Assembly (NCBI GenBank): GCA_958009085.1
Contig: OY253670.1
Location: 434,001 to 498,000, forward strand
Length of the DNA: 64,000 bases
Origin: Protoeuglena noctilucae
Taxonomy: Eukaryota
Reading direction: 5' to 3'
Shown: positions 18,701 to 56,026 of the stretch, in pieces
Layout of the letters: the number at the start of each line of letters is the position of its first letter
How positions within the stretch are numbered: the first letter of the stretch is position 1
Position numbers and translations under genes: made by a program
Notes under the pieces: generated by a model
The model's database searches: none
What the model was told of the DNA's origin: nothing
The model's input: only the letters and a program-made list of their open reading frames with translations

Positions 18701-19229
18701 TTACACGGTATTCCGATACATCACCTCACACCACATCGCCTGCAGTTACACGATCTGGCTGTTACAGCCCCTCCACCGCCTCTTGTCGAGCGAGGCGGGT
18801 CGACTGGTGCACCTGATGGCAGAGCTGCCCAAGGAGATATCTGTCGAGGAAGTGGTGGTGGCGTTAGTCGATGAGATGACGTCCCACCGACAGGACGAGA
18901 GCGTGCTGGATCTGACCGACACGGCAGGGGCTGATGTGGGCAGGGGGCAGGTGCGTGGGGGAGATCATGCATGGTGGATGAGGGGGGGCAGGTGCGGAGA
19001 TGCATGCATGCATGGCGGATGCGCTTACCTGCGTGGGTAGGGCACAGGCCACTCTCCTTTTTAGCATGCCAGTTGGCCTGGATGTTGGCATGGAAGCCAT
19101 GTCAAGCGACCATATTGCAGTCGTTGGGGCTAACTAACCATCGCAGTATCCGCTCACCCGCAGGGCGAAGTGAGGGGCCCAGCCCAGGGCGACAAGGCCG
19201 CCCCACCCGCTGCCGCCAAGGCCGGGTGA
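8277..19229 (+). CDS. TmcB/TmcC-like large multi-pass membrane protein with PAS domains, about 20 exons, 5' end uncertain
   Basis: N-terminal hydrophobic helices (8454-9790), then a helical region (HPHYPKLLQ|MYGKFLEDVQDN). A clear PAS domain lies at ~11370-11641 (DSVVVIDAETNLISFTNANMTKLFGYKRGELVGRNVNTLMPQPFSQHHDRYL...VVALHKDGTVFPV), with further PAS-like segments at 11855-12530. An acidic linker and C-terminal TM segments follow. TGA at 19227-19229. Confidence 0.75.
12661..12758 (+). repeat. (CTCACC)n microsatellite in the 3' part of an intron
   Basis: Directly visible tandem hexamer just upstream of the acceptor at ~12777. Confidence 0.95.
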
Positions 19230-19859
19230 CATGCATAGGCTGAGTGACATTGGGTCAAACCATCTCGCACCTGCACTCCGTGTTGACCGACAAGGATACA
19301 TGCTACTTGTTGCGATGTCTGTTTTTTGTAAGTTTGGGGTAAGGTGCCCTACATGAGCCCCGCGCCTTGTAGCGGCACGCAGCCTGGCTGGGGCCCTGCT
19401 TTTGCCGCGGGCAGCGGGCCGTGTGGTGCATCCCGCTGCGCCGCTTCTTTTCAGCTTTTGGAGAGCACGATGCCAGCCCTGCCGCTGACTACGGTTTTCC
19501 GCACAGGATGGCATGCTCGTAGCACCTACTGTGTCCCACGTCCCCAGCTCGGCCACCGTAGCTTTCCTGATGGTCACTTGCACATGATAGCGATGATGAT
19601 TTCCCGCACGACAATATTAACAGCACGCCTTGTTTGATAACAATACGTTTCAATATATCTTTTTGCCAACGCTAGGACAACACTAGGCTTTTTAACTTTT
19701 TCCGGCGCCGCCTGCGTTTTTGAATCGCAAGCAAGCACAGGATGCGGAGGAAGACACTCATAGGCGCAAAGCATTCCCTGCAGCCATGTCCTGAATGCCC
19801 GCGCTCCGCGTCGCTCGGCCGTGCTGCACTGCAAGTGGCGATGTTTGCTCTTGTTACAA

Positions 19860-22800
19860 CATCGGGAAAACCCGGCGATTTGACGTCACTCGGATCAGAA
19901 GGATCGCGGGAATCACTGGATTCATCCCAGTGATCCCCGGGAATCGCCGGGATCATCCCCGTGATCCCGGCGATCCCCGCCACTGCCGCAGTGATCCCAG
20001 CGATCCCGGGCCGCGGCCCTGACGCGCGTGCGCGCCCCCGCGTTTGCTCAGGGGGCTCGAGAGGAGGCGGAGAGACCGCACATTTGCTAGTTGGTGCTAA
20101 TGACTGCCTCGGAGGCCCCTCTCGCGTCCTAAAGCTTGCTCCAGCATGCAGACGGGGGCCGTCGACGCATCCGGGGTCCGCTTCCCCTGCGCCGCCGCTG
20201 TTCAACGTGAGATGTCCATATCTATGCGATGAGCGGGAGCTCGCGGGCTCGCCGGGCCCCCGGGGGCGCCGGGGAGGTCCCCGTGCTCGACCAGGCCTAC
20301 CGCCGCCGCGGCCGCGATCGGGCACGCAGCGCTTGGCCTATGGATTGAGGTGACCTAAATCTCGCTAGCTGCGGCGCCTTTGCCGGCTACGCCGCACGGA
20401 GGTGGCTGCTGCATGGGAGGTGAGCCGTCCCCGCCGTCATGGCGCTGCGGATGGGGGCGCGGGGCTGGCTTCGGAGAATTATCTCGATACAGATGACATC
20501 GCCGGCGTCGGGGACCTGGCACCGCGAGCATCGGGGAGCTCCTGGGGTCACCTACTCCTCGCCGCCGCTGGCGTGGTGCTCCCAGACCTGCTGCACGTGG
20601 CCGCAGTGAAGAAGCTTCCCAGCAACTTTCACGGCGTGAAGCTGCCGCCGAAGGTTGCGGAGGGGCACGCACTTCAGAGCCTCGCCCTCCGCAGGCTCCA
20701 GGAGCGACAGCTGGGGAGGCTGCAGCGCTCCCAGGTTGGTGTAGAACGACAAGCACTGGTTGGACAGGTACCTCAGGTCGCATGGGGCCGTGTGCACCGG
20801 GGCCACCAGGGCGCAGAGGAAGGTCCCGGCACCGGAGCTGGTCTTCGCCTCAACCCCGCACACGACCCTGCCCGTCTGCAGCGTGCCCCTGTCCGGGAGG
20901 TACTCGACGAAGGACAGGGTCTCGTCGGTGGCGACGATCCTGGCCCGGTCCCCGCTGGCCGTCCCGATCTCGACCGTGGAGGTCAGCGCGACCTCGCCCA
21001 AGACGTGGCAGGGAAGCCCCGCGCCCTTGAGGGCGTTCAGGAGGTCCGCCTTAGAAACGAAGTCTTCCGCGCGTCCCTCGCTGCACAGGTCGTTCTTCTT
21101 CAGGACGGTCTTCACGCCCTTCACTTGGTCCTCGGGCTGGGACGGGACCGGCTGCTCCGCCCTCGCCCGGCTCTTGATGACGGAGGCCGCCCTCTGAGAG
21201 ATGACGCTGGTGCTCGCCTGCGACAGGGCTCGGGGGTCAGTCCAGCGCGGCTCAGCATGGCACGCGGGTCGAGCGCCGTGCGACCGCATCGAGACGTGTG
21301 AGTCGCAAGAAACGCGTCCTGCGTGGGCTTCCCCGCGTCGCCTGCGCTGGGCGGCGCTTCTTGCCTGTACCTGCACGTCGCCCTTGCCGTTCGTGCGCGC
21401 GTTGGCAATGGGCTTGTGCATGCGCTCGGCGTCGTTCATGCTGCCCAACATGATGGAGCCGTTCCTCGCCACCACTGCAGGGAAATGCGAAAGCGCGTGG
21501 CACTTCTGGCTGTTCTCGATCTTGCTGAAGAGGGGCTTCTCCGTGCGGACGATTTCGTGGCCACGCAGCAGCGTCTTGAGCACGACCTGCGGCGACACGG
21601 CAGCGACAAGGCTTCCAGAGTGAGTAAGGGGCAGCGAACGATGGGGCTGGTGTTGGAGAAGGCCTCACGTGGAGGACCTTATTCAGCTGCGCGTCCGCCG
21701 CCTGCGCCCCTGCGATGGTGGCGCTCTCCAGGGACCATTCGGCAGAGAGCTGAAGGCATGCCAGGGCTACGGCCACGAGCCCAACCCTCTCGTCGTGCAC
21801 GTCTTTGCTGCCCGAAAGCTCTGCAAGGGATGTGGTGGTGGGGAAACACTCCCGGGGTTCCCCGGCCCGCATCGCGATACCCGCAGCTCCTCCCGATGCC
21901 CTCGCAGCGCTGACTGTCGGCCTCGCCTCGAGAGAAGAGCTCGATGAGGGCGAAAGGCAGAGCTTGGATCAAGAACCTCGCCTCGTACGCCTTTATCTTC
22001 CCAAACGGGTCCACGAGGCTCAGCACGATCTGGAAGGTCTCGCCCCACGGACGGGCGTGGATCCATGCCGGGGCCTGCGCTCCACCCACACGACGATGGA
22101 CATGCCAGGTGAATACCGAGCAGCTGCGGCGCCACTGCAGGCAACGCACGCCATTGCCTGACCTGCAGCTCACCTTGGCATCCGCAATGATCGATGCGAA
22201 CGCAGCCAAGAGGGCGTTTGCCTTTGTCGCAGACTCTCCCGCTGCCGCGTTGTTGTAGAGGACGGTCAGTATGCAGAAGGGAACAGTCTTGCCCAACATT
22301 CCCAGTTCCACGGTGTGCATGGGGTCAGGTGCTTGGCCCTGATACAAGTCTGACCCGAACTCGTCCCAGTACGACAGGGCAGGAACCACAGGATGAATTT
22401 TGCTCTCCCTGGCTTGTTCGTTGGCCCTGGCCGTCCCCACGTCCCTCCTCAAGCGCAGGATGTGCTGCACCTGGAGGCGATGCAGCGCGACGGTGCGAGG
22501 CGTGCGGCAGTCATCCTGGAGGCACAGCGGGCACGACCTGACGGCCAGCGTGGACGAGTTGGCCATCATGTCGTTCAGCTGCGCCGCCAAGACGGGAAAG
22601 ACGATGACTCTCCCGACGTCGGGGAGGGTCATCCACACCCCACCGGACCTCGCCACGCCAATCAGCTGCCGGTCCACGGCAGCCAGCCGCCGCTGGATGG
22701 CCTCTCTGTTGTTCAGGTCTGCCTGTGACCCCGGAGTGATCCCGGACACCTGCGGGGGCCTCGAGCGACAACTCATACACGCGGCGTGGTGGTGGACGTG

Positions 22801-25432
22801 TGGGCTGCAACGCCGGCAATCCTCCTCTCGCCTTCATGGACTCGACGGTGGCCACGGTTCGCGGCGTCCCTGTCCTCACGGCCTTGCAAGGCGACAGGAG
22901 GTGCATGTGGATGGGCGTCGTCGATGCGCCCTTGGTCATCTCCACCCCGTCGATGCTGTACGCGACGGGCACGAGGAGCAGCCGGGCGTGCAGCTCGGGG
23001 CGGACTTTGCCAGCGACAGCCTCGGCTATGTCGCTATACCCCTTCGCCCGGGAGAAGGTGAGCTTCTCGTGGATGCTGGGATGCGTCTCATGTGGTCTCG
23101 CCCGCGCCTGGCGTGACCGTTCCCGTGCCTCGCTGAAGTCTCGCATCAACTTAACGAGCGTCTTGGGCTTGATCTGCTCCGCGTGCACCAGCATGTCCCT
23201 CAGCACCGTTATCGTTTGGTAGATGATGGTTGTGCTGCCCTCCTCTTGCAAAACCTGCAGGCCGTGCGTGCACTGGTTGGCGTCAGCCCCCTCGGCCGCG
23301 TCCGAGGCCCTCGACACAAGCGGCACCGCGGCGTGACGCACCTCGTACTGGCCATGGATGCTGTTGAGTGAGGTGTGGAACGTGCGGTGGGAGCGCCCGA
23401 GGTCGAGAAGGTCGTCGCGGATGTCGGGGCGCAGCTTCACGAAGCAATCGAAATGCGCTGCCGTCAGCGATGCCATGAACTGCGCCCCTGCTTCAAGTTG
23501 GCTCAGGTACTCATCGTCACTGTCCCTGCTCCTGGCCCGCCATGCCTCCAGGTCCTCCGGCAGCTTCAGCGGTTCGTACTCCCCGGGCGCAGGAAGGTAG
23601 GAGACTCCAGGAGCGTCCTCTTGGGGCGCATCATGCGCTCCGGCGCTCTCGGGCGGTTCACCCCTCTCCGAGTCAATGTCCACGTCCATGTCCACGTCCG
23701 TGTCGGCGTAGTGGAGCCACGCGAGTCCTACATCTTCGCTCTCGCCATCACTGCCCGCAGCAACGTCCGCCGTCCCGTCTTCCTCCCGCAGTTCTTGGTC
23801 TGGTCCCGCGCTGGCGCTGTCGCGTGCCAGCCCGTCCGAGCCTCGCAGAGACGGAGAGACATAGTGTTCGTGTGGGGCGGCGGGGCGGGGTGCTTCCTGG
23901 CGGCTCTCCTCGCCATATCTCCAGCCCCACAGCGCAGGGCATCTTTGCTGATGCCGGGCGAGCTTGGCCGGGGTATCGAATTGCGTTCCACACGCGTCGC
24001 ATTCGAGCATGGTGAGCTGCAGCGCAGGTTGCGATGCAGGGTTCAAGGCGGGCATGGTGAGGGCGTGGAAGCGGAGGTGAGGAAAGTCCAGCGCGCGCTC
24101 TGTGGGTCAGGCAGGCTCAGGGGTCGTCAGTCCTCCAGGCAAGCGGGGGTGGATTGCAGGGCTGCAGCGACAGCACCGCGCACAGGCGAGGCTCGGCGCT
24201 GCTGGTGCGAACAGCGCTGGATCATCGTCCCTCTCTAGGGTGAGAGTGCAGCCTGCTGCTGAGCCATCTGCGAGGTGTGCTGACGTGGCTGGGGAGGGGA
24301 GGGGCCAGCTCCCGTGAGGTGAGATGCAGCATACGCATGACTAGATCAGGTCGGACATTGTCGCTGTCCCCGAGGTGCGCGGTTGGTCTGCTGCGCTACC
24401 GGTGGGGTCTGCGACACGGTCAGGTGTGCAAGGGGGGGTTGGTTGGCTGGGAGGGACGAAGGGCTGGTCCGCCAGCGTGGTATCTCTGTACTTGCTTACT
24501 GTACCTGGCACCGTGCCTGCACTCTCTCACCCCGAGACTGACTCTAACTTCGCCTAACAAGCACGCAGGCGCACGTGCCACCTCGTCCCAAGTTCCGGCG
24601 CTGGTCGGGTGCTGGCCGGGCCCGCCATGGCTCGTCCGCCGACCCATGCCCCTTGTCTGTCGTCTGGCGTCCGCGGCGCCCCGCAGCGGTGGTCATCGAC
24701 TCCTGGGGCGGCCGTCGGCACGGCGGAGTCGCGCACGCCACCATCTCCCGAGTGCCTGGCCCGAGTGCCGGAGCGCCGCTCCCCGATGGAGCGGCAGCGT
24801 CCGGAACAAGCGGTCGGTGCCTCTGGCGGTGGTCGCTGCGCGCTCCCGTCGCGCCTGCGGCCGCCCGAGTCCGGCTGCATGTGCGTGCATGAGTGCGTTG
24901 CCTAGAGCGTCACGGATGGTCATGTAACCTCGGCGTAGGGATTGAAATACCAATAGCTACGCTAGGGAGCGATTACGGGCCGAACGGAGCCCCCCGGGCC
25001 GCGCGGGCCCCGGAGCGCGCGTGCCCGAAAGATGCGTCCGATCGCGATCAAGATAGGTCTGATCGCGGCCGAGAAGGAAGATAGGCGGCGGGATAGCCTC
25101 GGCTAACGCTTCCGGCGCCGCTGCGCTCCCGAGTGGGCCCCGCTCCCCGCGATCCCCGACCACGACGAAATGCCGCGAAACTGCTCCCAGCGGCCTCTCG
25201 CATCCCGGGTGCGCCGTGGCCGTAACCGCGCCGCGAAAAACGGCCTCCCCAGGGAGATCGGGCGCGCGGCTGGAATCACTGGGCTCAATGAGGGTTTACA
25301 TTACAGTCTGTGTCGTCAGTGGGATCACTGGGGTGATCCCTCTGATACCCCGGGATCAGCGGGATGATCCCCACGATTCCTGGGTATCACGGGGATGATC
25401 CTACTGACGCCAGACTCGCGGTTTTCCCGATG
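19860..25432 (-). mobile_element. Plavaka-type (CMC-related) cut-and-paste DNA transposon, apparently full length (5573 bp)
   Basis: Left end CATCGGGAAAACC (19860) and right end GGTTTTCCCGATG (25432) form a perfect 13-bp inverted repeat that extends imperfectly to ~38 bp. It is flanked by AA at 19858-59 and 25433-34. Both ends carry subterminal GATC-core repeats, and the element encodes a transposase. Confidence 0.9.
20552..24010 (-). CDS. Plavaka-family DDE transposase with N-terminal C2H2-like zinc finger, 7 exons
   Basis: Motifs in order: CDACGTQFDTPAKLARHQQRC (Zn finger); VAYSIDG (D1); VFPVLAAQLNDMM...CPLC (D2 plus CxxC); APDPMHTVELG (DxxH); KCHALSHF...NGS...AERMH...RTN (catalytic E). 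Six introns can be placed that keep a single open frame to TAG at 20552. Confidence 0.85.
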
Positions 25433-25619
25433 AAAGCTTCGATGCACCAGCGCCTCGCATCCAGATCACGCGGGCAATAGCGCCCTCGTGCCTATGTGGG
25501 CGCCACCCGCAGACTTAGTTCTGTTCAGTGCAGACCGCTGCCGGTGCCTCCACGCCGCCTCCACAGCGACTGCAGCAAGCGCCGCTGTGTAGGGATCGCA
25601 AAAAGCTACGTGGCCCAGC

Positions 25620-28600
25620 ATGAGCCCCGCAAATCGCAGCCCGGCGGGGCCGCCGAGCTTCGTGAAGGCGCCCACCGACAAGAAGGAGGCGAGGCTCGCG
25701 CCTGCCTGCTTCCTCAGATCCCGGGCCGAGCTCTGTGCGCGAGATTGACCATTTTCATGCGATCGCAGTATCGCCTCACGCGGCTGCCGAACGGGATGCT
25801 GGCCATCCTCGTGCACGACCCCGAGATCGTCCTTTCCGAGGAAGGGGAGGACGGGGCCGGAGAACGGCGTCCGACGGATGATCGGAGCATGCGATCTGCA
25901 CCGCTGTCAGAGGCGAGGAGGAGCCTGCGCACCCGCCCACGGCGCATCGCCTCGTGCCGTGCCTCGCAGATCCCGCGCTCGTCTCAACCGCAGGCTGAGG
26001 ACGGGGAGAGCATGAGCGAGGAGGAGGATGATGACAACGAAGAGGACGGCGAGGGCTCGGGCGGGGAGGGCAGCCCTCTCGGGTCGCTGGAAGGGGGCGA
26101 GTCGAGCGAGGAGGGGGAGGCGGCCCGCGCCCTCCGCACGCACCCCGCGGGCGCTGCGCAGGGAGAAAAGCGCGCTGCGGCTGCGGTGTCGGTCGGGATC
26201 GGCTCCTTCAGCGACCCGCAGGACCTCCCGGGGCTCAGCCACCTGCTGGAGCACATGCTGGTGATGCGCGCTTGCGAATCCAGAAACCCGCCCTCTCTTT
26301 GCGTTGCGTCACGCATTTTCTACCAAAGTATTATTCCCGCAAACGCTCTCCGCGCACCGTCGTCGCGAGCCGCGCAGCGCAGGTCCCGACTGCAGCTTCC
26401 CTGTGATCGCAGTTCATGGGCAGCGAGCGCTTCCCGGAGGAGAACGAGTACGACCAGTTCCTCCAAATGCACGGTGGCTCGAGCAACGCGTTCACGGACG
26501 CCGAGATGACGACGTATTACTTCGAAGTGCGGCCCGCCTACCTCCGCGGCGCTCTCGAAGTCTTTGCCGGCTTCTTCACGGGGCCGCTGCTGAAGGAGAC
26601 GTCGATTGAGCGCGAAGTGGAGGCGGTCGACAACGAGTTCGCGCTCAGCCAGCAGTCGGACACGGCGCGGCTGGGGCAGGTGCGTGCTTGCAGCGATGGG
26701 CGTAGGGTGGCAGGGTGCGTGCAGCGTATGCCGGGCGTCCACGTATTGTGAACTAGCGCATCCTCATTCGCAGATGGCGTGCTCTTCGGCGGTCCCGGGC
26801 CACACCTACGGCAACTTTTCCTGGGGCGACAAGCGCTCTCTGTGGGACGGCCCGCGGTCGCGGGGCATCGACGTTCGGGCCCGGGTGCTGGACCACTACC
26901 TCACGCACTACGGAGCGGAGCGCATGACGTTGGTGCTGCTGGGTGGGCAGAGTTTGGACGAACTGGAGGGATGGGCCAAGGAGTTGTTCGCCGCCACGCC
27001 CGGGTGAGAGGGAGTGGCCTGGCGCGATTAAGGGCAATGATGCAAGGGTGGGATGCTGACCCTTGGTAAGTATGGACGCACGTTCTCACTCGGGTGATTG
27101 GCATTGCACTAGCATGTGCAATGCCGTGATGACATCATGTCACCTCACACGTACCATCTCTTCTGACCCAACCACCACTAGGTGTGAGCTCTAACTGACG
27201 CATGATCACCATAGATCCCGCTCTTCCCGTGCCACGCAGCAGCAAGGGCCCCCGCCCCTCCTTCCGTGATGCGGGGATGCCCTTCGCCGACCCGCCCCTC
27301 ATGTTTCTGGCGCCGAGCGTCAAGACGCAGCACGTGCTGGGACGTGAGTGTCTTCGCTGTGTTGTGTGTGCTTGAGGGTGGTGTTGTGTGTTCAAGGGGC
27401 TGCGTTGTGCTTTGTAATTGGATGCAGTTGGCCAACCAAATTGCAGTGACTATCTAAGCAGCCACTAACCGAATGTCACCATCGCCGTGATCCGCAGTGC
27501 TGTTCCAGCTCCCCCCCCTGATCGACAGGTACCGGTGCAAGGCCGAGGACTACGTGTCCCATCTGGTGGGGCACGAGGGGAAGGGGTCGCTGGTGAGTGG
27601 GGTGTGAGATGGGGAGGTATGAAGGGATCTGAACATTAACAAGTGGAGAGTGGGGAGTGAGATGGTGGGGCACGAGGGGAAGGGGTGTTGGTGAGTGTGT
27701 GAGTGAGATGAATGGGGCACGAGGGGAAGGGATCGCTGGTGGGAGGCGGGTGGCTGCAAGCATGGGATGGGAAAAGAGGAATTGCCATTTGACATTGTCG
27801 CATAGCAATGCATGAACTTACCATACCACGTCCTTCGCACCTCCCTTCTCCCCCAATCCATACCTGTAACTCGACCCATCCCCTTGCCTACGCCTCCCTC
27901 CCTCGCAGCTCTCTGCCCTGAAGGCGCGCGGCCTGGCCACAGCTCTGGCGGCGGGGGTGGAGCTGAGCGGGGAGAACAAGAACACGGCTTACTCGCTCTT
28001 TACCATCCACGTCACGCTGGTGAGTGTGACTGCTACTGTTAGTGTTACTGCGTCATGATGTGGCTGTGCCTGGACCCTCTTCACCGTCCACGTCACGCTC
28101 GTGAGGGAGAGTGGGGTGGTGATGGGTGATGTGAAGATGTGACTGCGCTCAGGCGTCCCATCTCGTTGTCAAATATCTCATATCTATCAAATTTCATAGC
28201 ATTTTATCTCACATCACATCCCCTACCCCCCAGACGGACGCGGGCGTGTCTGACATGGGCGCTGCGGCGACCGAGCTCGTGTTTGGGTACATACGCATGC
28301 TAACTGAGGGCGGTCCCGAGAAGTGGGTGTGGGAGGAGCTGCGGGCGGTGTCTGAGATGCGGTTCCGATACGCAGAGGCGAGTTGGTTACTATAAATATG
28401 GGCAGTATTGATGGTGTTTGGTAGCATGGTGGTTGGTGTCCGAGATTCGGTTCCGATATGCGGAGGTGAGTGGAATACTGGGGATGGGCGATTGGTGGTA
28501 CCGTAGCCGTTGATAACTGACTTATATGTTATATGGATGTATCATGCCAACAAATAGATAATATCTATTTGTTAGTAACTAGAATATTGACACGGTAATA

Positions 28601-28752
28601 ACTCACATGAGTCCCCCCTCCCCCCTCGCTTTTCAGGAGGAGTTTGCGGGTGATTTGGTGCTGAGCCTGGCGGTCAATGCCCACCTGTACCCCCCCCACC
28701 ACGCGCTCTACGGAGATTACGCGTACGAGGAGTACGACGAGCAGCTGATACG
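25620..28752 (+). CDS. Nardilysin-like / insulinase family M16A metallopeptidase, N-terminal half only (runs into the assembly gap)
   Basis: VKAPTDKKE|YRLTRLPNGMLAILVHDP, then an acidic insertion (EEEDDDNEED), then KRAAAAVSVGIGSFSDPQDLPGLSHLLEHML|FMGSERFPEENEY with the HxxEH zinc motif, and later HLVGHEGKGSL. Confidence 0.9.
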
Positions 28753-28846
28753 GTGAGACTGGCTGTCATTATTACTATATGCATGATCGTATCATTGCAT
28801 GATATATGTATGACTGATCCGTGATCTCGACAACCCCTCCCCTCTT

Positions 28847-29046
28847 NNNNNNNNNNNNNNNNNNNNNNNNNNNNNNNNNNNNNNNNNNNNNNNNNNNNNN
28901 NNNNNNNNNNNNNNNNNNNNNNNNNNNNNNNNNNNNNNNNNNNNNNNNNNNNNNNNNNNNNNNNNNNNNNNNNNNNNNNNNNNNNNNNNNNNNNNNNNNN
29001 NNNNNNNNNNNNNNNNNNNNNNNNNNNNNNNNNNNNNNNNNNNNNN
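28847..29046. other. Assembly gap (200 N)
   Basis: Run of N. The genes on both sides are incomplete. Confidence 1.
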
Positions 29047-29319
29047 TTTTGATATTAGAAGTGTTTGGGAGTGTGTTGAGGCTCATGGTCACTGCTACTA
29101 TGGGTCAGCAGCTATGGGGGGGAGAAATGGCAAGTGTCATGAAATCACACATAGATATCCATAGTTATATATAGAAATCCATAATAAATACCACATTTCC
29201 GATCACCTTGGGGTGTTCCCGGAAGTTCTCGGGATCCCTGGGGTAGCCTCACCATGTACTCACACACAGATACCCATAACAATTATATCAATTACAATTA
29301 TACTGATATTTCCAGTCAC

Positions 29320-32300
29320 CTTAGGGTGTTCCCGGAAGTTCTCCGGGTCCCGGGGGTAGGGCCACCGGAAGGGCTGCGGGTGGGGATACCACCCCCTCAT
29401 CCTGGCATCTCCCTCCGCCAGAGTGCCGGGCAGCGGGTCCGGCGCCGCCCTCCGTTCGTGCTCCGCCATCATGGATCGTGCTGTGCCGTACGGGTCCGAC
29501 TGCGACATCACGTTCGCCATCAGAGCACGTTGCGGGTTCCAGGTCTCCCACAAATCGCGGGCCGCGCGGCCGCCTGGGGGGGTTAAGAGGAGATGAGTGA
29601 GCGGGGTGGTGAGTGTGGTTGGGGTGGGGAGTGTTGGGTGGTGAGTGAGTGAGTGAGTGAGTGAGTGAGTGAGTGAGTGAGTGAGTGAGTGAGTGAGTGA
29701 GTGAGTGAGTGAGTGAGTGAGTGAGTGAGTGAGTGAGTGAGTGAGTGAGTGAGTGAGTGAGTGAGTGAGTGATTGAGTGAGTGAGTGAGTGAGTGAGTGA
29801 GTGAGTGGGGTGGTGAGTGTGGGTGACGCATAAGTTGCTAATCGGGGTGTTGATATGGTCACATCGCCCCTACCCGTGCCCAATGCATCCCATCCACACA
29901 AACCCCACCCCCCTGACCACACCCCCTCCCCCTTCAACCCCACTCACGTGTCGCCTCCGCCTCCCGCATTCTCTCCCAATTAACCTCCTCCCACCGCACC
30001 CCACGCCTACGCTCCTCCCTCGCAGCCCTCTCAGCTTCATAAGCAAGGTTGCATGGCGGTATGTACGGATTGCGCAGCTCAGGGAACGACACCGTTCCCC
30101 CAGAGTCCTCCCCGCCCACCCCCGCGTCCCCGGTAACTCGCCGCCCTTCCCCGGACTCCTCCACAGCTCTCGAAACGCGGCGGGAGCTGGGCCGCATGGA
30201 CCGACGCTGTTTACTGACGCCTGCGTCAGTCCACCCCACCACGTCCTCCCTCGTCAGCTCCCCGCCAAACTTCTTATACACCATATCGATCATCTCTCCG
30301 GTAGGGAATAGCCTCAGGTCCTCGGCCTGTCGGGTAAAGTCGGCGGTTGTCAGCGCGTGCAATCGTCGCATTCCCTCGCGACACTTGTCGCGCACGCGAC
30401 CGGTGGAGAAGGTGCCTGCCTCTGCCACGATGCGGGACAGGGGGGCGCGGAGCTTGACCTGGGGTTAGGGGGGGTTAGGGGGGGTTAGGGGGGGTTGGGG
30501 TGGGGGGGGGTGGGGGTGGGGGTATGACTTATGATTGCATGGTGGGATCGCGCGTGTGCATGCGTGGGCATGAGAGGGCGCGTGGCAGCATGCACGCACG
30601 CACCACTCGCATCGCACATCATCAATGCTAGTATCACTCCCATCGCACATTGCTACGATCACACAGTATAATTCCCATCCATAACCCCACGCGTCATCCC
30701 CTCGCCTGCTCGACGTGAATCCCGAACGACGCGAATATCCGGTCCGAAAAAGAGAGCAGCTTCGACCACAGCGCCTTCCGCGGCCTCTTGCAAGCGTCCG
30801 ATGCGTCCTCTGCAATCGCGCACTCGCACAGATACGACATCTGCTGCATCCACCCTTCCGCTAAACCCTCGACGAAAATGATGCGGGTGGAGCCGTCGAT
30901 GACCTGCGTAGCTCATCAAACGGGATTAGTAACATAGTCGAATTGGTCAACATCTCAGTGGCTGGATCAGTCACGGGGTGTGTGGGGTGCAGGTTGTGAC
31001 CAGGTCCAGCTCTACCGTGTTACTTACTTTTGTTATTACATATCTCAATCATAAATTATATGTATATAATAACAAACCACCCCTCGTATATCACCTGGCA
31101 CGCGGTGAGCAGGTCCAGCTCCGGATTGGCCGCCTCGTCCTCGGTGATCTTTCGCGTGGCCATGACTTGCATGGTGTGCTGCGATACCTGAGTCAGGTCG
31201 TATCGGTGCTGCAGTCTTTCTAATTGGGTCATCGATTGCAGCTCCTCGTATTCCTCCATCAGCCGAGAGCGCTCGTCCTGGTGGGGGGGGGGGGGGGGGG
31301 ATTTCTAATATTTAATATCTGCTATCTAAACTCTTATGTTTCTATATTAGAGATGGGGATGAGAGGGGTGGATGGGGTGAGGAGCGTGATGTGGATGGAG
31401 GGGAGTGGGGATGAGACATGGGGATGATAGATATGGATGGGAGGTGGTACAATCGAGAGAAGTGATGCTATCGCATCGACTGTTATTTTGCTATCTCTGT
31501 ATTAGCCCCTCACCATGACTGCCCCATGTACCGTTCCATGTACCCCAATACTATCGCATCAATTGTATCTATGTTATGAAAAATATAATATTTTCCATAT
31601 CTCATATCTCATATCCTCACCATGACTGCCAGGTATCGTTCCATGGCCTCGCTGGGCCGGCTCGCTTGCTTGGACTGACTGCGGCGGTGGGCGGCTGTGA
31701 GAAGGAGGGGGGGATGGGCAATGAGCTTGCAATAACAGTTTGTAACAGCTGTAGTTGTCACGAGAGTGCATCGACATCCCGTATGTTATCATGATGGCGC
31801 ATCAACATCACATTTGCTTTTATCAATCATCATAAAACTCACTGGCCGTCCTTGCCCCCAGTGCCCTCCCCTCTGATGCCTTGCCACCCTCCTCCTCTCC
31901 CCCCTGCTTGTCGGGCTCCGGCTCTGCTTGGGAATGATAGAATTGATATGTGTGGATAATCCACTTATATCCAAGATGTTGAATGGGTGGCAGTGAGGGT
32001 GGCAGCGGGGGTGGCAGTGAGGGTGCGGGTGCCGATACCGGCAAGCCATCTCTGTCATTAATATTAATGAGTATATGAGTTGTTATAGCACACATAGACA
32101 GTCGCATTATATCACAGCCACTCACCCGGCGGCAGCTCCGGCAGCTCGGGTGGCTCTGGGTCGTGGATGGGGTTCTCGACCAATCCCATAGTGATGGCAT
32201 TGAGCACTTTGATGGTGCGCTCCACTCTGTGAAAGGGGGTGAGTGATTGCATGTGAGAGTGAGAGTGAGGGGTCCTTTCTGGTCCATTCGTTACCGGTTG

Positions 32301-53500: not shown

Positions 53501-56026
53501 CACGGAGGTCGGGGGACGCCTCTGCGATCTCCCGGACGAAGTGGACGACTTCCAGAGCGCTGGCGGCGCTGGAATCGCCCAGGAAGTCCATGAGGAGGTG
53601 GACGACGGACGGGGCGACGGACGGGAAGCGGACCGCGCATCGGTGGACGCCCGCGATGAGGAGCTGGCGGTACTGGGGGCCGCCCTCCACGTCCTTGGAC
53701 TGCGGGGGGTGGGGGGGGGGGGGGGGGGGGGGGAATGGGAGATGTTATGGAATCTGAGATGAACTCTAGGGTTTGGACAGGCAGGGTGGTGAGGCGGTGC
53801 TCGCGATGCAAAAGGAGGGGCGTGGGCATGGGCATGTCTTTGAACTGGCACCTCACGATCTCCTTCTTCAGCACCTGCACCCCTCTTGTTGACAATCACT
53901 CACCTGTGACCTCACGATCTCCTTCTTGAGCACTTGCACGACCTCGTCGATGGTCCCCTTGGACACCAGGCCCAGCGCCAGGTCCAACACCTTTTTGCGC
54001 ACCTCCATGGACTGCGGGGAGGGGGCAGAGGGACAGGGGGTGTTTGTGAGAGAGACAGGCGTTTGTCGCAATCAGCAGTGTGGCCAGCGAGGCGGTGGTG
54101 GGACAATACGCACATGCGAGGTTGCCGACACAATCAAACCCCGTCATCGACTCTTCCCCCCCCACCAGCCCGTGTGTCTCGCCTGGGTGTTGAGTGCCCT
54201 GAGCAGGTCCATCAAAAAGTCCTTGACGGTGGCCTGGTGCTTGTCGCGGAGGCTGGCGATGCGGTCCAGCACGATGAGCTTCACGTTGTTGTCGGACTGG
54301 GACACCTGGGGGAGGGGAGAGTGAAGCGGGAGGTGAAACGGAGGTAAACAAAGGCTAGAAGTAGTGTTGTCGGACTTGGACGGGGGACTTGGACCGGGGG
54401 GGGGTGGGGTGGGGGAGAGGGAGATGGAGAGGGAGGTGAACGGTGGTGAGCGAAGGCAAGCGAACGTGAGCGGAGGTGAATCAGGGTTTAGCAGAGGTGA
54501 TCAGAGGCAGAGGATAGCAGAGACCAACAGAGAGTGTACAGGGTGCGCATGCGCCGGCCGAAGCTGTCCGTCTCGCCGCATGTCTTCATCAGCATGCACG
54601 TACAGGTCGCAACCAAACGTGTAACAGTGACTCACCAGCAGCTGGACGTAGCAGTTGGCGACGGCGCGGATGGCGGTGGGCGCCTGGGAGAGCTGCGTCA
54701 GGACGTACGCCGCCTCAAAGACCACCGAGGGAGACGACGACTGGACGAACGCAAGCACGATCTGCGGGCCATGAAAGTACAGGTGATGCAGCGGTGACGA
54801 GTAAGGAAATGAGTAGAAGTAGCAGGTGGCAGTCAGGTCGCGGTGAGAGCGAGGGGGAGGAAGCTTAGACCCGAACCCAGGCGAATGCACCGCCCACCCG
54901 CCCCGCCGCTCGCCTGCACGAACGTCCCCCTCTGGGCCGGCTGAGTGCGGCAGGCCTTGCGGACCAGCTGCAGCCCCGCCATCTGCATCGTGTCCTGCCA
55001 CTCCACGAGCCGGGCCTTGTTCTCCACCAAAAACTGCAGGGCGCGCGTCTCAGCGTGATTGATTAGGAAGTGGAACGCGTTGCGGCGGGCGCTGGGGTCC
55101 TCCTCCTGCCGCAGAAACTTGTCGATGACCTCGGCCGCGTCCGGAATCAGCACGTCGCCCTTCGGGAGCTTCGCGACGGAGTCGACGGCGAGCACTGCGT
55201 TGCGCCGGACGTACGCCTTGCGATGGTCCAAGCACGCGAGGATCGAGGGCACCAGGGGCTCCAGGATGTCCTCCTCGTGGATGCGGCAGAGGAAGCGGAG
55301 CGTCACGCCGCGCAGGAACTCGTTCGGGTGCTGCAGGTTGTTGCGCAGGTTTTGGCAAATGAGGATCATCTCGGGGAGCAGCTTGCCCGACGCGTCCGTC
55401 TTCTTGATCGTCTCCTGCGCGAAGCGGGGGGCACGAGGCGGAGCGAGATGAGCGACTTCGACGGGGCAGCGAGGCGGACGGTCGCTGCGGGCCGGCGCGG
55501 GCGGAAACGGCGCGTCGCACAGCGCGTCATGCAGTGCGGGCCCCGCGGCGTCCCCCGTCCCAGATCCTCCCCCTCCGCGCACGCAGCGAGCACAACAAAG
55601 TCGTACCTGTTCGCGTCTGCGTCTAGGGGACAGGCTAGCGGCGTTCTGCGCCCGGCGCGGCCAGCCAAAGGGTCAAGGCCGGCAGGGTCGTCCGCGTGGC
55701 GCGCCGAGGCGGGTCCGGGGTCGAGAGCCCGATGCGATGGAAAGAACGCATGAAAATCAATCGCGAACGCCCAGGGGCCTCACCAAGTAGAGCAGCAGCA
55801 GCTTTTGGACGAGGTGGTTGTCGGTGGGGAGGACGTAGCGCACGATGGTGAAGAAGAGCTGGTCGAGCTGCTCTCCGTTGAGTATCAGCGCGATGACCTG
55901 CTTCATCGCCTCCGCCTTCTCGCCCGGATCGGCCGACTCGAGCATCTTCTTCAGGTCCACCTGGTTGGGGTTCCGATCGGAGTGCACCAGCATGGTGCAG
56001 GTCTGCTCCGTGAGGCTGCTCGTCAT
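50590..56026 (-). CDS. COPB1: Coatomer subunit beta (beta-COP)
   Basis: CTMLVH...[124 protein letters not shown]. Confidence 0.98.

Follow-up and report, generated by a model that had tools for sequence, protein, structure and literature searches.

A young multi-copy transposon family with a Plavaka-like transposase, probably of the autonomous cut-and-paste type, in a GC-rich marine alga

Background

Among DNA transposons, the CMCT clade includes EnSpm/CACTA, Mirage, Chapaev, Transib and Plavaka. According to Kojima (2025, PMC12730594), its transposases share a C(2)C and an H(3-4)H motif that lie after the second D and before the E of the DDE site, and its elements mostly carry CA..TG termini, with 2-5 bp target-site duplications (TSDs). 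The same paper gives TGT..ACA termini and a 2-bp TSD for PlavakaA, CATCA..TGATG termini and a TSD of 2-3 bp for PlavakaB, CAC..GTG termini and a 3-bp TSD for EnSpm, and TSDs of 7-8 bp for the Kyakuja-Dileera-Zisupton (KDZ) elements (Kyakuja 7, Zisupton 8). Here, we analyse an element at positions 19860-25432 of a 64,000-nucleotide (nt) window, the whole stretch of DNA under study, from the marine alga Protoeuglena noctilucae (contig OY253670.1, positions 434,001 to 498,000). The element is probably an autonomous-type cut-and-paste transposon belonging to a young multi-copy family, with a transposase of ~977 amino acids (aa) in the CMCT layout, and would represent a Plavaka-like orphan lineage.

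Plavaka or EnSpm-Plavaka elements have already been reported from red algae including Bostrychia (bioRxiv 10.1101/2025.02.11.637652), from Auxenochlorella (PMC12633428) and from Spirogyra, so that the algal host, pointed out in the initial annotation of the window, is not a novelty in itself.

Ends of the element and copies elsewhere

The element is a 5,573-bp unit bounded by inverted 13-nt termini, CATCGGGAAAACC, which occur in the window as two exact copies without mismatch, so that the claim of complete termini at precisely 19860 and 25432 stands. In shuffle controls that tolerated up to 2 mismatches the mean was 1.27 matches, and 33 of 100 shuffles gave two or more; the bare count of two matches is unremarkable by this measure, and what counts is the exactness of the two copies together with their inverted orientation. 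By our own arithmetic, an exact 13-mer would be expected ~0.002 times per window by chance. The flanks read ...TTGTTACAA, then the element, starting CATCGGG, then AAAGCTTCG, which gives an AA/AA direct repeat, with an unequal third base on the two sides (C vs A, for 3-bp flanks of CAA vs AAA).

Inside both ends lie subterminal repeat arrays (Table 1). The segment 19913-19970 of the left array is 81% complementary to 25350-25407 across 58 nt, and GGGATC/GATCCC sites number 10 in the two ~160-nt end zones, as against 2 in the 5.25-kb interior and 30 in the 58.4 kb beyond the element. A plausible course of transposition is one where the transposase would bind the GGGATC/GATCCC arrays, possibly with the help of its zinc finger, and would pair the 13-bp CA...TG termini, with excision by a DDE site in which the D, D and E residues are the putative catalytic ones. 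Reinsertion by a 2-bp staggered cut would then leave AA/AA flanks.

The element, or part of it, is present in 18 of the 24 public sequencing runs listed, which belong to 8 studies and cover marine metagenomes and metatranscriptomes as well as three coded organisms. Four runs (X1, X2, X6 and X13) were compared with the window across 19000-26300. A 5,976-nt contig of X2, a DNA run, spans 19860-25432 and extends leftward into sequence that has no likeness to the window. One X13 contig matches up to 25433 and then diverges, and a contig of X1 (organism A) covers 19788-25433 and carries the window's own left junction. Since the ends recur joined to other flanks, the left one in X2 and the right one in X13, the unit is mobile with these exact ends. 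In all four runs the sequence departs from the window copy at an identical set of 10 single bases, 0.18% of 5,573 nt. The depth of sequence words in the element contigs (36.7 in X2 and 46.9 in X6, with ~2-6 in flanking contigs) fits a repeat, though depth is not equivalent to copy number. A depth spike to 96.7 in X2 lies over an acidic D/V-repeat stretch of exon 1 (DVDMDVDID, 23672-23708); it comes from short unrelated contigs with GTC/ATC-rich loose ends, a low-complexity cross-match with no bearing on the copy number of the element.

Near-identical fragments of the unspliced exon-1 open reading frame (ORF) form a 28-member cluster, and the contigs that carry the 15 members listed range up to 1.2 Mb, with others of 1.07 Mb, 879 kb and 846 kb; one variant of the exon-2/3 ORF is present on 55 contigs. 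Active cut-and-paste families typically leave deletion derivatives, and such forms were found: P0004 (also P0021) has a 124-nt internal deletion, equivalent to ~22107-22230, with CTG microhomology, and P0022 has lost roughly 288 nt, equivalent to ~21619-21906, and with them exon 4, both deletions having been mapped by hand from translations. A further variant, P0019, carries a frameshift that joins two frames. The new insertion contexts with identical ends, the ~0.18% divergence, the dozens of contigs and the deletion derivatives together identify a young multi-copy family that moved recently, in agreement with the recently active family proposed in the initial annotation; the family may still be active.

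Neither blastn nor tblastn found a further copy or fragment inside the window, and no contig joining 19859 to 25433, as expected of an empty site, was found in the four runs, whose flank coverage there is thin. Pattern scans for the termini returned at least 118 metagenome-contig loci, 92 prokaryote-genome loci and 4 viral-contig loci, none of which is otherwise like the element; a blastn comparison of the element with 214 loci found by the pattern gave no match.

The transposase gene

Codon periodicity is confined to the minus strand between 20552 and 24055; the adjoining stretches, 1.38 kb on the upstream and 0.69 kb on the downstream side, lack it. A second coding region is absent from the element, which bears out the earlier statement that TET/JBP cargo is missing. 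The predicted spliced product is a stop-free 977 aa, with four frame-restoring introns and one optional in-frame intron (130, 99, 106, 82 and 153 nt) and a GC content at third codon positions (GC3) of 0.78-0.91 across the six exons. Each of the four frame switches of the coding signal lies at a GTGAGG or GCGAGG ... GCAG donor/acceptor pair, and all five acceptors are GCAG. Alternative GC donors exist 48 nt further downstream for intron 1 and 6 nt off for intron 5.

The uninterrupted spliced ORF of the initial annotation, with its last exon at 21217-20552, is reproduced by this model, while the account of its introns has to be revised. Six introns had been counted, three of them with GC donors; four obligatory introns and one optional intron were found, with intron 3 (GCGAGG) the only one that lacks a good GT alternative. 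Long residence in the lineage had been argued from GC donors in the style of the host, whereas the neighbouring host peptidase gene uses GT in all five of the introns placed. The splice signals of the element otherwise appear to resemble those of the host, as judged from this Peptidase_M16 gene, where five introns placed by eye have GT donors and (C/T)GCAG acceptors.

In the spliced product the order of motifs is finger-D-D-C(2)C-DxxH-H(3)H-E (Table 1), which reads as the layout of the CMCT clade, the short motifs having been identified by eye and not by a scored alignment. The D, D, DxxH and E residues named in the initial annotation are all retained, as is the zinc finger, which reaches an E of 0.06 with Pfam zf-C2H2, under the cut-off. 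The uncharacterised C-terminal domain of ~220 aa is likewise recovered, at 221 aa and with no Pfam match.

Table 1. Positions of the features of the element in the 64-kb window, and of motifs in the predicted spliced product
Feature	Position	Strand	Basis or remark
Left terminal inverted repeat, CATCGGGAAAACC	19860..19872	+	Exact match; X2 contig flank differs directly before 19860
Right terminal inverted repeat	25420..25432	-	Exact match; X13 contig diverges after 25433
Left copy of putative 2-bp TSD (AA)	19858..19859	.	Flank reading, one copy
Right copy of putative 2-bp TSD (AA)	25433..25434	.	Flank reading, one copy
Left subterminal repeat array, probably bound by the transposase; motifs GTGATCCC, GGGATCA and GGGAATC	19904..20009	.	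Repeat families D1-D4, I1/I2; 6 GGGATC/GATCCC sites
Right subterminal repeat array	25269..25411	.	I1 repeat; 4 GGGATC/GATCCC sites
5' non-coding region (promoter/5' untranslated region)	24056..25268	-	Lacks codon periodicity
Exon 1, 392 aa: CX2CX12HX3C finger (23939-24001), acidic linker, first D (22937-22963)	22880..24055	-	Gene model, motifs
Predicted intron 1, 130 nt from GTGAGG; or 82 nt via GC donor GCGAGA at 22831	22750..22879	-	
Exon 2: second D (22558-22587), C(2)C (22522-22536), DPMH (22300-22329)	22174..22749	-	Gene model, motifs
Optional intron 2, 99 nt, GTGAGC...GCAG; in frame, stop-free, may be retained	22075..22173	-	
Exon 3	21927..22074	-	GC3 0.82
Predicted intron 3, 106 nt, GC donor GCGAGG...TTGCAG, phase 1	21821..21926	-	No consensus GT donor restoring the frame
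Exon 4	21669..21820	-	GC3 0.80
Predicted intron 4, 82 nt, GTGAGG...GCAG	21587..21668	-	
Exon 5: H(3)H (21485-21505), putative catalytic E (within 21413-21439)	21371..21586	-	GC3 0.90
Predicted intron 5 (GTACAG...GCAG, 153 nt); open and in frame, with a GC donor at 21364 as alternative	21218..21370	-	
Exon 6, 221 aa + stop: C-terminal domain without recognisable relatives	20552..21217	-	GC3 0.91; Pfam, Atlas negative
Zinc finger CX2CX12HX3C	aa 19-39		Spliced product
First D	D369		Spliced product; context AYSIDGVEM
Second D	D452		Spliced product; context AAQLNDMMAN
C(2)C	aa 464-468		Spliced product; SCPLC
DxxH	aa 534-537		Spliced product; DPMH
H(3)H	aa 714-718		Spliced product; HALSH
E	E738		Spliced product; context NDAERMH

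Comparison with described elements

The termini and flanks of the element (CATCG...CGATG, AA/AA) agree with those of the CMCT clade, and the spliced model has its C(2)C and H(3)H motifs after the second D and ahead of the E; by sequence similarity, searches with single exon pieces gave only self-matches or noise. Among described elements, PlavakaB of Agaricomycotina fungi (PMC12730594) appears nearest by termini and duplication length: the ends share CATC...GATG, that is four of five bases, a TSD of 2 (or 3) bp would suit the putative AA/AA duplication, and PlavakaB families without TET exist. The element differs in its fifth terminal base, G instead of A, in its lack of a PF18759 or phmmer match, in its marine algal host, and in its 221-aa C-terminal domain, for which no relative was recognised.

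The algal elements were compared by description only. The EnSpm-Plavaka families of Auxenochlorella, like the element, have an algal host; they are cut-and-paste elements of the EnSpm superfamily and are termed potentially active, with insertion polymorphism, in PMC12633428. The giant Plavaka elements of red algae are 17-19 kb long with three accessory genes (bioRxiv 10.1101/2025.02.11.637652), in contrast to the 5.6 kb and single gene of the present element.

Other groups fit less well. EnSpm/CACTA proper resembles the element in having subterminal arrays at both ends, a transposase gene of several exons and motifs laid out as in the CMCT clade, but the element has CATCG instead of CAC..GTG termini and flanks (CAA vs AAA) that fit a duplication of 2 bp and not 3; the EnSpm Pfam model, which we take to be Transposase_21, is also unmatched. 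Mirage, a CMC superfamily known from animals and having a 2-bp TSD in Repbase descriptions, is comparable in the putative 2-bp duplication and the CMC-type motifs, whereas sequence similarity to it was not detected. KDZ was set aside on the grounds that the flanks share only 2 bp and the KDZ Pfam models are unmatched, and hAT and Harbinger since they make TSDs of another length and Pfam matches are absent.

Evidence against, and alternative explanations

A number of results weigh against the interpretation as an autonomous Plavaka-like transposon, the most extensive being the homology searches. In these searches single exons or stop-to-stop ORFs were scored in place of the spliced 977-aa protein. 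The Plavaka model PF18759 (325 positions, cut-off 26.3 bits), the KDZ models and other transposase models were all unmatched by four stop-to-stop ORFs at E up to 0.1 and by five exon pieces at E up to 10, so that the Plavaka label finds no backing in a profile. In a library of 1.84 billion representative proteins, where significance requires ~50 bits, phmmer with a 274-aa core piece returned two matches, the element itself (99% identity) and a tandem-repeat artefact. Word-based searches recovered only clusters of the element itself (1 of 2,178 and 1 of 8,000 candidates) and nothing among 6,294 longer candidates, and sequence searches of the PDB yielded nothing relevant. The motif match, moreover, depends on our own reading of short motifs. 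As to the duplication, the AA/AA direct repeat described in the initial annotation is present; as a 2-bp TSD it is putative, being read from the single copy with both flanks known, where a 2-bp match has a chance of 1 in 16; flanks from other, different copies end in ..AC on the left and start with AT.. on the right.

The gene model is subject to similar reservations. Between 153 and 315 donor/acceptor pairs per junction are in frame and stop-free, and the splice sites are therefore not unique and their exact boundaries not readable from sequence. No spliced joint for the frame-restoring introns, for which RNA support had been looked for, is seen in the contigs of the two RNA runs (X6 and X13), where the element is unspliced; this unspliced form could be carried-over DNA, and assembled contigs drop rare forms. 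X6 is genuine RNA, as the upstream plus-strand gene has a poly(A) end at 19737. Breaks between X13 contigs near some predicted junctions were considered as a sign of splicing and rejected, the depth there being 4-9, as in coverage gaps. The 10 differences from the majority copy comprise six in exons, five nonsynonymous and one synonymous, and four in non-coding sequence. With five amino-acid changes against one synonymous change the window copy may be decaying, and the majority copy would be the better candidate for an autonomous element than the window copy, although the ORF of the latter is uninterrupted.

Structural searches added little. Single-sequence AlphaFold2 models were too poor for a fold search (pLDDT, the model's own confidence score, 37.6 for the core piece), and the structure prediction proposed for the C-terminal domain proved unusable at 45.5. 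Look-alikes of both pieces in the ESM Atlas had low recognition (1794, 1785) and consisted of phage capsids (0.92) and PH/TH1-like domains (up to 0.83), which were discarded as noise. A search with PF18759 for a reference Plavaka in one bacterial genome and 14 control genomes gave no match.

These negative results bear differently on the alternatives. That the element is a bona fide Plavaka of the PlavakaB kind, too diverged and too fragmented by introns for profile scoring exon by exon, is a real possibility, if one on the less favoured side of even. The 4/5 agreement of CATCG..CGATG with the PlavakaB termini, the putative 2-bp duplication, and a motif layout that includes C(2)C and H(3)H are all consistent with it, as are the stretches GGVWM...PVLAAQLND...SCPLC and PDPMH..G, which we take to resemble the Plavaka consensus. 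EnSpm-Plavaka elements are, in addition, reported from other algae in the sources cited above. However, the 274-aa piece that leaves PF18759 unmatched would be expected to cover most of the model, the exhaustive phmmer search yielded zero fungal or algal Plavaka proteins, and C(2)C and H(3-4)H are common to the whole CMCT clade and so do not discriminate. The resemblance to Plavaka in termini, TSD and motifs thus survives from the initial annotation, and membership by profile or sequence does not. The element is treated here as a Plavaka-like orphan because its sequence is too divergent for placement in Plavaka or any other named family. It probably constitutes an undescribed, highly divergent Plavaka-like lineage of an otherwise ordinary kind of element, a single-gene terminal-inverted-repeat transposon without cargo.

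The same absence of detectable relatives from the Pfam, phmmer, word-based and PDB searches, together with structure models too poor to reveal an RNase H fold, would also be expected if the enzyme belonged to a different or new DDE superfamily and its CMCT-like motif order were coincidental. This is improbable in view of D, D, C(2)C, DxxH and H(3)H-E, which make five features in order and at plausible spacing, and of CA..TG termini, subterminal arrays and a short TSD that agree with the CMCT clade. More improbable still is the suggestion that there is no splicing at all, the apparent introns being fixed frameshifts of a dead family that was amplified by the transposase of another element or by segmental duplication. 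The RNA contigs without spliced joints, the frequency of stop-free donor/acceptor combinations by chance in GC-rich DNA, and the excess of nonsynonymous changes in the window copy are what such a history would produce. Yet each frame change falls on a GTGAG/GCGAG...GCAG pair similar to the ones in the adjacent host gene, strong codon periodicity extends through all six exons, its frame shifting where introns are predicted, and near-identical copies occur at different sites with precise ends, as transposition predicts. An autonomous-type Plavaka-like transposon accordingly remains the preferred reading, at the strength given above.

Genomic surroundings

GC content is high across the window, at 0.59-0.74 for most bins of 2 kb, and the insertion is intergenic, 122 nt beyond the poly(A) site of the upstream plus-strand gene and upstream of the Peptidase_M16 gene. 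The former is marked by an RNA contig of X6 (19349-19737, +) with a loose end of 19 A residues at 19737, indicative of polyadenylation; the latter, an insulinase-type host gene at 26160-27600 (+), adjoins the element. A run of N at ~28840-29050, either an assembly gap or masked, lies in a zone of low GC content (0.485 for 28001-30000 vs ~0.64 elsewhere). Further along, a host gene contributes an adaptin exon (Adaptin_N, E 1.2e-21) at 54833-55672 (-). Most other long ORFs scanned in the window had no Pfam match, as expected of fragments of intron-rich genes or of wrong frames in GC-rich DNA.

Implications

Marine phytoplankton are poorly covered by catalogues of active DNA transposons. Among the matches listed for Plavaka, no title concerns marine picoplankton or haptophytes, and no paper among the best matches listed treats Micromonas together with EnSpm/CACTA. 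As the present family illustrates, textbook CMCT motifs in their usual layout do not keep a transposase from escaping both Pfam and an exhaustive phmmer search, a point of relevance to the annotation of algal repeats. The presence of the family in marine metagenomes and culture runs of several studies means that its insertions could serve as population markers, and the element itself as a tagging tool. A stronger version of these conclusions is rather unlikely on present evidence: that the element founds an undescribed CMCT (RAG1/Transib-EnSpm-Plavaka) lineage, with a core that has no detectable relative in 1.84 billion proteins and a C-terminal domain of 221 aa that is new, and that it currently transposes in wild populations of a marine alga of high abundance. 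If true, however, insertional mutagenesis in marine phytoplankton would have a candidate endogenous tool in this element.

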